Assembly (NCBI RefSeq): GCF_003334255.1
Contig: NZ_QOWU01000028.1
Reading direction: 5' to 3' (one strand)
Source of the DNA: Escherichia coli
GTDB lineage: Bacteria > Pseudomonadota > Gammaproteobacteria > Enterobacterales > Enterobacteriaceae
Length of the DNA stretch: 59,824 nucleotides
Of the stretch, positions 54,871 to 54,895 are shown one piece after another (positions within the stretch are counted from its first letter, which is position 1; each line of letters opens with the position of its first letter). The position numbers and the translations under genes are program-made. The notes beneath the pieces are model-generated. The model saw only the letters and a program-made list of their open reading frames with translations. It was not told the origin of the DNA and did no database searches.

Positions 54871-54895
54871 ATTCTGCAGACACTGTCTGCAGAAT
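54871..54895. repeat. Perfect palindrome ATTCTGCAGAC-act-GTCTGCAGAAT between convergent yhcH and yhcG stops
   Basis: 11-bp arms, 3-nt spacer; same motif family as the three palindromes inside yhcG; likely 3'-end hairpin for both transcripts. Confidence 0.7.

Follow-up and report, generated by a model that had tools for sequence, protein, structure and literature searches.

Short palindromes that fold into hairpins and are linked to a nuclease-type gene are known from repetitive extragenic palindromes (REP), REP doublets forming hairpins (REPIN), and their REP-associated tyrosine transposases (RAYT). Their copies occur at 3′ ends between convergent genes, and REP-type hairpins can protect mRNA 3′ ends. 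Perfect inverted repeats are also known within protein-coding genes, where both arms are translated and a strict secondary structure is in compromise with the protein. Quasipalindromes are hotspots of templated mutation, as described by the Ripley model and with the reporters of the Lovett laboratory; together with the hairpin-loop inversions of chloroplast spacers, they account for paired changes of arms and for flips of loops. Here, we describe a palindrome in and beside yhcG, a gene of the DUF1016/YhcG family, in a 59,824-nucleotide stretch of Escherichia coli contig NZ_QOWU01000028.1, analyzed at its full length and called the window below.

The window contains a nan region of the E. coli K-12 type, with nanT-nanE-nanK-nanQ (yhcH) on the + strand and yhcG on the − strand, followed by yhcF and its neighbors. 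A perfect palindrome with 11-bp arms and a 3-nt loop (25 bases) lies in the 59-bp gap between the convergent stops of nanQ and yhcG, 15 nt past the yhcG stop codon (54911–54913). The original prediction, made from the letters of the window, had placed it there correctly, and had rightly given it a core in common with three intragenic copies about 750 bp away; the actual distance is 762 bp. The core, CAGAC-N3-GTCTG (CAGACNNNGTCTG), occurs four times in the window, compared with 0.07 expected, and none of 100 shuffles reaches four. All four sites are at yhcG, and the three intragenic ones (55639, 55678, and 55717) are spaced by 39 bp. The 25-mer pattern of the extragenic copy differs from intragenic copy 2 by one mismatch, with 0.00 such matches expected. 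The extragenic copy is an exact fit to the palindrome of the main DUF1016/YhcG subfamily, ATT-N3-CAGAC-N3-GTCTG-N3′-AAT, with the complementary triplets CTG/CAG. It is located outside the usual site of the family, the DUF1016_N linker just upstream of the LSWSHY/PWGH motif, which is where the three intragenic copies are positioned.

DUF1016/YhcG genes keep a hairpin at a fixed codon site

A hairpin is kept at a fixed codon site of DUF1016/YhcG genes across many bacterial phyla and archaea, in a loop that is predicted to be disordered. Residues 102–122 of YhcG are a coil in the AlphaFold model, with predicted local distance difference test values below 50. Among 41 non-redundant genes selected by protein similarity, 16 have perfectly paired stems of 11 bp or more around a 3-nt loop, compared with 0.04% of codon-shuffled genes, and 28 have a stem of at least 7 bp, compared with 8.8%. 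The stems of this set cluster at codons ~89–110; of the 19 stems that reach 9 bp or more, 14 begin at most 45 codons upstream of LSWSHY/PWGH. The palindrome precedes the same motif in all four metagenome genes that were selected by protein similarity (35–58% identical to YhcG, from genomes of 33–54% GC) and in all six plasmid genes (Burkholderia, Hymenobacter, Acinetobacter, Aeromonas, Shewanella, and Arthrobacter). Cores that have diverged together with their peptides are still palindromic, as in CGTGAC/GTCACG (IVVTLSRQ), CCCACA/TGTGGG (VPQPVGH), and CAACA-AGC-TGTTG (IVQQAVAQL).

The covariation of the arms was determined in 31 genes, in windows of sequence centered on the best local palindrome in codons 80–125; 11 genes without a clear palindrome were excluded. 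The pairs were counted by script on windows in a fixed register, as MAFFT misregistered eight of the 31. Twelve pairs are Watson-Crick at 91% of positions, and five of them show all four pair types. The value fell to 54.5% on average, and to 61.6% at most, when partners were shuffled among sequences, and to 19–29% when the partner was slid by 1–3 positions.

A census with the DNA pattern ATTNNNCAGACNNNGTCTGNNNAAT identified 38 viral loci and, in genomes that span many bacterial phyla as well as Methanoperedens and Methanoregula, at least 120 loci. Among the matches listed are 142 genome sites, 98 of which lie inside DUF1016 open reading frames (ORFs), eight adjoin one, and 36 belong to loci without one. 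The variable triplet is fully complementary at 90 of these 142 sites, whereas chance would give 1/64. Most of the sites listed are in the interior of DUF1016 ORFs, and some are intergenic, a few nucleotides past gene ends; the original prediction had left it to be checked which of the two places they occupy.

The profile search yielded 21,241 YhcG/DUF1016 cluster representatives at 50% identity. E. coli YhcG matches the PADLOC profile PDC-S02 along residues 9–370 (E = 2.8e-131), and yhcG/PDC-S02 is a candidate single-gene defense system. A sequence search of the PDB returned no YhcG homolog, and NCBIfam no matching model. Foldseek returned only weak PD-(D/E)XK matches (Cas4-like, NucS/EndoMS) and nothing informative on the N-terminal domain. 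Rfam, searched at a permissive E-value, gave at best 23.6 bits, compared with a gathering score of 80, from spurious microRNA-type models. The conserved coding palindrome is apparently undescribed, as no account of it was found among the papers examined that mention yhcG or DUF1016.

Base pairing is conserved in and beside yhcG

Conservation acts on base pairing, and neither the sequence nor the peptide is conserved. The triplet beside CAGAC varies among the copies, and the partner triplet follows it (CGC/GCG, TGG/CCA, CTG/CAG). Translation of the intragenic copies gives a repeat of 13 residues, I-x-Q-T-x-S-x-E/K. In the right arm, the reading frame is offset by one base, so that the pairing rule should couple particular amino acids, and these couplings are seen in the alleles: a left triplet beginning with C goes with E (GAA), one beginning with T with K (AAA), and one beginning with G with Q (CAA), as in IRQTMSGE, IWQTLSAK, and IVQTLSAQ. 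The claim that the motif is more than a by-product of the protein repeat therefore holds, since the arm triplets covary, the amino acids obey the pairing rule, and distant DUF1016 genes keep the hairpin.

Residues 85–137 of YhcG form a hypervariable cassette that is only 38–47% identical between alleles with 96–99% identity elsewhere. The 39-bp hairpin unit, corresponding to 13 residues, varies in number and type, and for this reason the YhcG proteins of E. coli are 349, 362, 370, 375, 382, or 391 residues long (window 55620–55745; P0005, P0031, P0016, P0018, and P0021); the lengths of 349, 362, and 375 residues differ by the gain or loss of one 13-residue unit. A frameshift signal composed of a slippery heptamer and the hairpin was considered and rejected, as the T TTT TTC of K-12 is not conserved in orthologs.

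The extragenic copy is kept paired by compensatory changes. Its four alleles, seen across all sampled phylogroups, are all perfectly paired (Table 1). At least two double changes, each of them compensated, separate the alleles, and the center of the loop flips from C to G and back between close strains. The flanks contain an 8-nt indel and substitutions, while the arms stay perfect. Strains Z247 and MS21324 have lost yhcG altogether, and only the palindrome is left in the 67 bp that separate nanQ from gltD; the same match type was found by BLAST in ~948 genomes.

Origin and distribution of the extragenic copy

The yhcG-strand sequence past the stop is TTTCAGCGGTTTCGA-ATTCTGCAGACAGTGTCTGCAGAAT, which reads in frame as FQRFR-ILQTVSAE. 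In Pseudocitrobacter faecalis, the hairpin that comes first inside yhcG has the sequence TTTCAACGCATTGAA-ATTCTGCAGACAGTGTCTGCAGAAT and encodes FQRIE-ILQTVSAE. The two palindromes are identical at 25 of 25 positions, including the loop, and the spacers at a modest 10 of 15, in a comparison allele that was picked after the data had been seen. In E. coli allele P0021, which is without the yhcG stop, translation runs through the extragenic copy. Salmonella, Citrobacter koseri, and P. faecalis have the gltD-yhcG synteny in common and lack the extragenic copy. C. koseri and P. faecalis also have nanQ downstream, and their yhcG–nanQ gaps contain ordinary terminators with a GC hairpin and a T-run. The first intragenic hairpin is kept in Salmonella, Citrobacter, Kluyvera, and every other ortholog examined. 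The identity of palindrome and spacer, in frame, points to a direct duplication of ~40 nt of the yhcG hairpin segment. On balance, we lean toward the view that the extragenic palindrome is an Escherichia-specific, direct, in-frame duplicate of the first hairpin-coding segment of yhcG, and is itself one case of the family-wide coding palindrome.

Besides the modest homology of the spacer, the rarity of such copies weighs against this view. A copy of the extragenic type is present downstream of one of 69 complete family genes, in addition to locus L010 and Escherichia. The downstream copy is therefore not part of an architecture that the family conserves, and it may lack an independent function; as a general feature of DUF1016 genes, it was rejected. 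Nor could the yhcG-less gap of Z247 be derived from the arrangement of K-12 or 1919D3 by one deletion, as the 15 nt that separate the palindrome from the gltD stop do not match either of them.

A BLAST search of 5,400 complete genomes, with a sensitivity for copies of ~20–25 nt near-identity, placed copies only at the nanQ/yhcG locus among the matches listed. Each E. coli genome has 1–6 BLAST places, several of which are palindromes aligning to one another, and all those checked among the matches listed are at nanQ/yhcG. Because the E. coli copies are confined to one locus, the element is in this species not the dispersed sequence that the original prediction had proposed; the part of the proposal that stands is the occurrence of solitary intergenic copies in other taxa.

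Three arrangements are found between gltD and nanQ in E. coli: gltD-gltF-yhcADEF-yhcG-nanQ, as in K-12; gltD-yhcG-nanQ; and gltD-nanQ with a solitary palindrome (L001, Z247, 3053–3119; L002, 1919D3, 3053–4112; window 56039 onward). The block from gltF to yhcA-F is a separate presence/absence island.

Table 1 Palindromes and genes of the nanQ/yhcG locus and alleles of the extragenic copy.
Feature	Position in window	Strand	Description
Extragenic perfect palindrome	54871–54895	.	ATTCTGCAGAC-ACT-GTCTGCAGAAT; 11-bp perfect arms
Duplicated segment (~40 nt)	54871–54910	−	Palindrome and 15-nt spacer to yhcG stop; frame reads FQRFR-ILQTVSAE
Intragenic copy 1, first in yhcG	55710–55736	−	AATTCGCCAGAC-ATT-GTCTGGCGAATT; EIRQTMSGE; ancestral family hairpin
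Intragenic copy 2	55668–55700	−	GGGAATTCTGCAGAC-GGT-GTCTGCGGAATTCCC; GIPQTPSAEF; one mismatch
Intragenic copy 3 in gene order	55629–55661	−	AAAGATTTGGCAGAC-AGC-GTCTGCCAAATCTTT; KIWQTLSAKS; 15-bp perfect arms; breakpoint of 1919D3/BL21-type truncation; source of right arm in E. albertii hybrid
yhcG coding sequence	54911–56038	−	DUF1016_N and YhcG_C PD-(D/E)XK nuclease; PADLOC candidate PDC-S02
nanQ (yhcH) coding sequence	54387–54851	+	Last gene of nan operon, convergent with yhcG
Extragenic allele, K-12			CTG/CAG arms, loop ACT
Extragenic allele, O157:H7			CTG/CAG arms, loop AGT
Extragenic allele, L004			CTC/GAG arms, loop AGT
Extragenic allele, Z247 and MS21324			CGC/GCG arms, loop ACT

Palindrome copies are end points of rearrangements

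The copies of the palindrome are end points of rearrangements. In Escherichia albertii NBRC 107761, yhcG ends in a hybrid, imperfect palindrome, the left arm of which comes from the extragenic copy and the right arm from the internal copy encoding IWQTLSA. The nanQ-side flank follows directly, and the nuclease-coding two-thirds of yhcG are deleted. The nuclease part was thus deleted between two palindromes. Strain 1919D3 and B-type strains, represented by C43(DE3), have a yhcG that breaks off at internal copy 1. In the census, the hairpin also forms the end of at least 11 DUF1016 ORFs that retain only an N-terminal part (profile positions 79–113), and the PADLOC PDC-S02 models include many fragments that are N-terminal only.

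In 1919D3, the spacer on the nanQ side and the 3′ two-thirds of the gene have given way to a ~470-bp segment with an ORF of 101 residues, annotated as a transposase (L002, 3053–3525). This segment joins yhcG within the left arm of internal copy 1, and C43(DE3) has the same pseudogene, annotated as DUF1016 N-terminal.

A candidate nuclease-plus-hairpin module

We propose that the hairpin extrudes where the DNA is single-stranded, as it is at the replication fork. Templated repair within the strand would keep the arms perfect and flip the center of the loop. Misalignment of the copies would lead to the gain or loss of 39-bp units, and to the deletion of the nuclease-coding segment between the internal and extragenic copies. 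On RNA, the palindrome would form a stable stem-loop near the 3′ end of both convergent transcripts, which could slow 3′ exonucleases.

Our leading guess is that the family hairpin is a cis element that acts at the level of DNA or RNA and is tied to the nuclease. It may be a structure that the encoded nuclease uses for self-regulation or self-recognition, within a self-contained module able to work in any host. Because gene and element stay together in bacteria and archaea alike, a partner that accompanies them is the most economical explanation, and the nuclease is the obvious candidate. That the nuclease itself is the partner of the hairpin is a possibility that we put forward tentatively. 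With similar reserve, we suggest that DUF1016/YhcG (PDC-S02) could constitute a module in which the coding hairpin is the cis partner of the PD-(D/E)XK nuclease, from Proteobacteria to methanogenic archaea, and the extragenic copy of E. coli an outer site. Such a module might serve in self-regulation, in the marking of self and non-self, or in a programmed process by which the nuclease-coding segment is lost or exchanged at the hairpin.

Several points count against these proposals. About a quarter of the genes picked by protein similarity are without a clear palindrome, and the formation of the hairpin in vivo, on DNA or RNA, is a prediction. The palindrome is almost fully symmetric around a single central C/G base. 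A G-U signature is absent from the sense strand (3 of 42 mismatches), and an excess of C·A on the antisense strand is largely an effect of lysine codons at one position. The mismatches outside the lysine-affected position number 8 versus 3, and those just outside the arms 22 versus 19. The lack of a sense-strand G-U signature and the near-complete symmetry lean toward DNA over RNA, but are confounded by the lysine preference.

Alternative explanations

The original prediction took the palindrome for a probable 3′ hairpin of both convergent transcripts. A bidirectional intrinsic terminator or 3′-end stabilizer of the nan operon and yhcG would agree with the location between convergent stops and with the G+C-rich 11-bp stem, which has five G-C pairs and a 3-nt loop. 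The hairpin is predicted to be stable on both strands, with −22.7 kcal/mol (z −5.5) for the + strand including flanks and −15.6 kcal/mol for the bare hairpin of the − strand. It is also kept, with compensatory changes, between nanQ and gltD in yhcG-less strains, and relatives have a true terminator in the same gap.

Against termination, neither strand has a U-tract of at least five of eight positions after the stem (nan strand UCGAAACC, yhcG strand CUUUAAAA). The stem is followed by TCGAAACC on the nan side and by CTTTAAAA on the yhcG side; the T-rich tract said to be on the yhcG side was overstated, as it consists only of CTTTAAAACG, three T followed by four A. A scan of positions 54300–56300 for consensus terminators and promoters does not call the palindrome, and the TERMITe data (PMC12207403) have no entry at the site. 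The Term-seq 3′ ends listed by Adams et al. 2021 (PMC7815308), from cells in lysogeny broth (LB) with the nan operon uninduced, include none in the nanQ/yhcG gap (33689xx/33690xx) or at the internal hairpins. The same study reports a Rho termination region at 3368581(−) with a Rho score of 4.4. As yhcG occupies 3367827–3368954 in NC_000913.3, this region maps to window position ~55284, antisense to yhcG and ~390 nt past the palindrome on the nan strand. Transcripts of the nan strand thus extend beyond the palindrome in LB. Moreover, the duplication of a coding segment already explains the sequence. The extragenic palindrome does not look like an intrinsic terminator; it may act passively, as a stem-loop or exonuclease barrier at 3′ ends, the nan operon being uninduced in the published data. 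The proposed 3′ role for both transcripts is so far unsupported, and we regard it as unlikely.

A second Rho region of Adams et al. 2021 (PMC7815308), 3367906(+) with a score of 3.0, corresponds to window position ~55959, 79 nt into yhcG on the sense strand; neither Rho region is at a palindrome. The non-coding RNA G0-10703 of RegulonDB (window ~56040–56220) is reported to be divergent from yhcG, to overlap its 5′ untranslated region by 128 bp, and to be activated in stationary phase (PMC7967276). Elsewhere in the window, at 16469–16493, an unrelated perfect palindrome with 11-bp arms, AAAAGGCCGGA-AAA-TCCGGCCTTTT, looks like a bidirectional terminator.

The extragenic copy might also be functionless debris of a partial gene duplication, which persists neutrally and is perfect only through intrastrand templated correction. 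This would agree with its origin as a duplicated gene fragment, with the rarity of downstream copies in the family, and with the flips of the loop center, and templated quasipalindrome mutation is reportedly an established process in E. coli (Ripley; Lovett laboratory). However, all four alleles are perfect across phylogroups and after the loss of yhcG, while the flanks have diverged, which argues against pure neutrality. We doubt that neutral persistence is the explanation.

In another explanation, to which we give a small chance, the palindromes are double-stranded binding or cleavage sites of a symmetric dimer, likeliest YhcG, and the arm positions that are not contacted are kept by quasipalindrome templated mutation instead of selection. 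PD-(D/E)XK enzymes are often dimers that recognize palindromes. The near-complete symmetry and the missing strand-specific wobble signature are in line with such sites, as are the loops ACT and AGT, reverse complements of each other with about the same frequency across the family (30 versus 33), and the complementarity of loop positions 1 and 3 in 64% of sites. The core sequence also differs between protein subfamilies. However, copies within one gene have different variable triplets, each of which is complementary. A dimer indifferent to these positions offers no account of this, so that the explanation leans wholly on mutational homogenization. A nuclease gene with its own cleavage site would furthermore need protection, and E. 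coli yhcG is without a partner methylase.

A mobile, self-spreading element that colonized yhcG, similar to REPs or miniature inverted-repeat transposable elements or of the att type, is very improbable. It would be in keeping with the solitary intergenic copies of other taxa, which sit a few nucleotides past gene ends and have as neighbors hsdR of type I restriction-modification, a phosphorothioate-dependent restriction enzyme, a SocA-like toxin-antitoxin pair with a tyrosine recombinase, a serine recombinase with MobA, and mnmE. Identical 48-nt direct repeats around a whole DUF1016 gene in locus L138 also fit. Yet E. coli has no off-locus copies among the BLAST matches listed, the apparently solitary sites of loci L027 and L051 are remnants of DUF1016 genes truncated at the palindrome, and there is no transposase partner. 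The codon position, fixed family-wide, argues for inheritance and not repeated insertion. The solitary and flanking cases are anecdotal and suggest an exchange of flanking genes at the hairpin.

Palindromes near other genes were seen in a range of settings. In L138 (1140–2370), each of the 48-nt repeats flanking the complete DUF1016 gene contains a perfect AATTTGCCAGAC-ACT-GTCTGGCAAATT, and the motif inside the gene is degenerate (EKSQTISAG). A palindrome pair in L027 (4680–6160) brackets a SocA-like antitoxin and a small ORF, with a tyrosine recombinase just past the second palindrome; the repeat of at least 99 nt is a DUF1016 gene remnant with two palindromes. In L111 (3739–4709), a pair brackets an ORF of 255 residues just after hsdR. 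Two different perfect palindromes stand in intergenic tandem, with a shared AATT, in L041 (9938–9985) and L066 (4089–4136). In L041, they adjoin a Ccr-like serine recombinase gene at its 5′ end, with a MobA-like gene ~225 nt away; the neighbors of those of L066 are without a family match. An Aeromonas veronii plasmid (L175, 423–5942) carries a tandem duplicate of a unit composed of a DNA methyltransferase, a DUF1016 gene, and a hypothetical gene, in which one methyltransferase accession appears twice. The DUF1016 gene of a Shewanella IncP plasmid (L176, 1236–3499) overlaps the stop of a site-specific integrase gene, and that of Burkholderia (L172, 1–3631) is near a phage integrase and an HU gene; the linkage to tyrosine recombinases recurs. 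In L155, three family palindromes (200–330) are ~590 nt upstream of a DUF1016 ORF (865–2472), the profile match of which begins at residue 149, and a further palindrome pair is inside the gene.

Finally, chance resemblance or a by-product of selection on the peptide I-x-Q-T-x-S-x-E, widespread as the peptide is in the family, can be dismissed, because the CAG and TCT codons are fixed in the palindrome even in genomes of 33–35% GC, the complementarity of third positions and triplets goes beyond peptide selection, the palindrome is at the same place under other peptides, the extragenic copy is non-coding, and the covariation and shuffle tests refute it.

Significance and comparison with known systems

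The main result beyond the original observation is a coding hairpin, apparently undescribed, that sequence comparison indicates to be conserved across the YhcG/DUF1016 family, a very common family of uncharacterized nucleases enriched in defense islands, type I restriction-modification operons, and mobile elements. A compensated hairpin at one codon position that overrides codon usage and dictates the peptide, across bacteria and archaea, is a strong sign of an unrecognized cis-acting function. The hairpin accounts for the hypervariable QT.S repeat region of family alignments and for the many genes and models that are N-terminal only, and annotators should be aware that the QT.S peptide motif reflects the symmetry of the DNA. 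In E. coli, it accounts for the length polymorphism of yhcG and for the deletions of the nuclease domain. The hairpin is directly open to experiment by synonymous recoding.

The conserved coding hairpin, which we prefer as the source of the extragenic copy, resembles several described systems in part. Like Rho-independent terminators and 3′ stabilizing stem-loops, the extragenic copy is a stable stem-loop a few nucleotides past convergent stops; unlike them, it has no U-tract, and no 3′ end is mapped there in the published data from uninduced cells. Imperfect palindromes that act as hairpins and bound gene cassettes are known from the attC sites of integrons, among other folded single-strand recombination sites, and some of the solitary and flanking copies are near tyrosine recombinases. 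In contrast to attC, the palindromes described here have no R″/L″-L′/R′ boxes with GTTRRRY and no extrahelical bases, have a 3-nt loop, and are inside an ORF, and no integrase is present at the E. coli locus. Quasipalindrome hotspots are mutational and arise in arbitrary sequences; they do not account for a hairpin kept at a single position of one gene family in both bacteria and archaea.

The likeness to REP, REPIN, and RAYT is in the short hairpin palindromes, their link to a nuclease-type gene, and the copies at 3′ ends between convergent genes. REPs, however, are intergenic, number hundreds per genome, and have an HUH Y1 partner. BLAST did not reveal many dispersed copies in E. coli, as in REPs or bacterial interspersed mosaic elements (BIME); there are 1–4 copies at one locus, the core copy is in a coding sequence at a fixed codon, and the linked gene encodes a DUF1016_N and YhcG_C protein of the PD-(D/E)XK type and not an HUH Y1 RAYT. 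The perfect inverted repeats of protein-coding genes have in common with the hairpin of DUF1016/YhcG the translation of both arms and the compromise of structure with protein. They are up to 284 bp long, lineage-specific, and spread over many genes of one genome, whereas the palindromes described here are 25–35 bp long and occupy one position of one gene family in bacteria and archaea.

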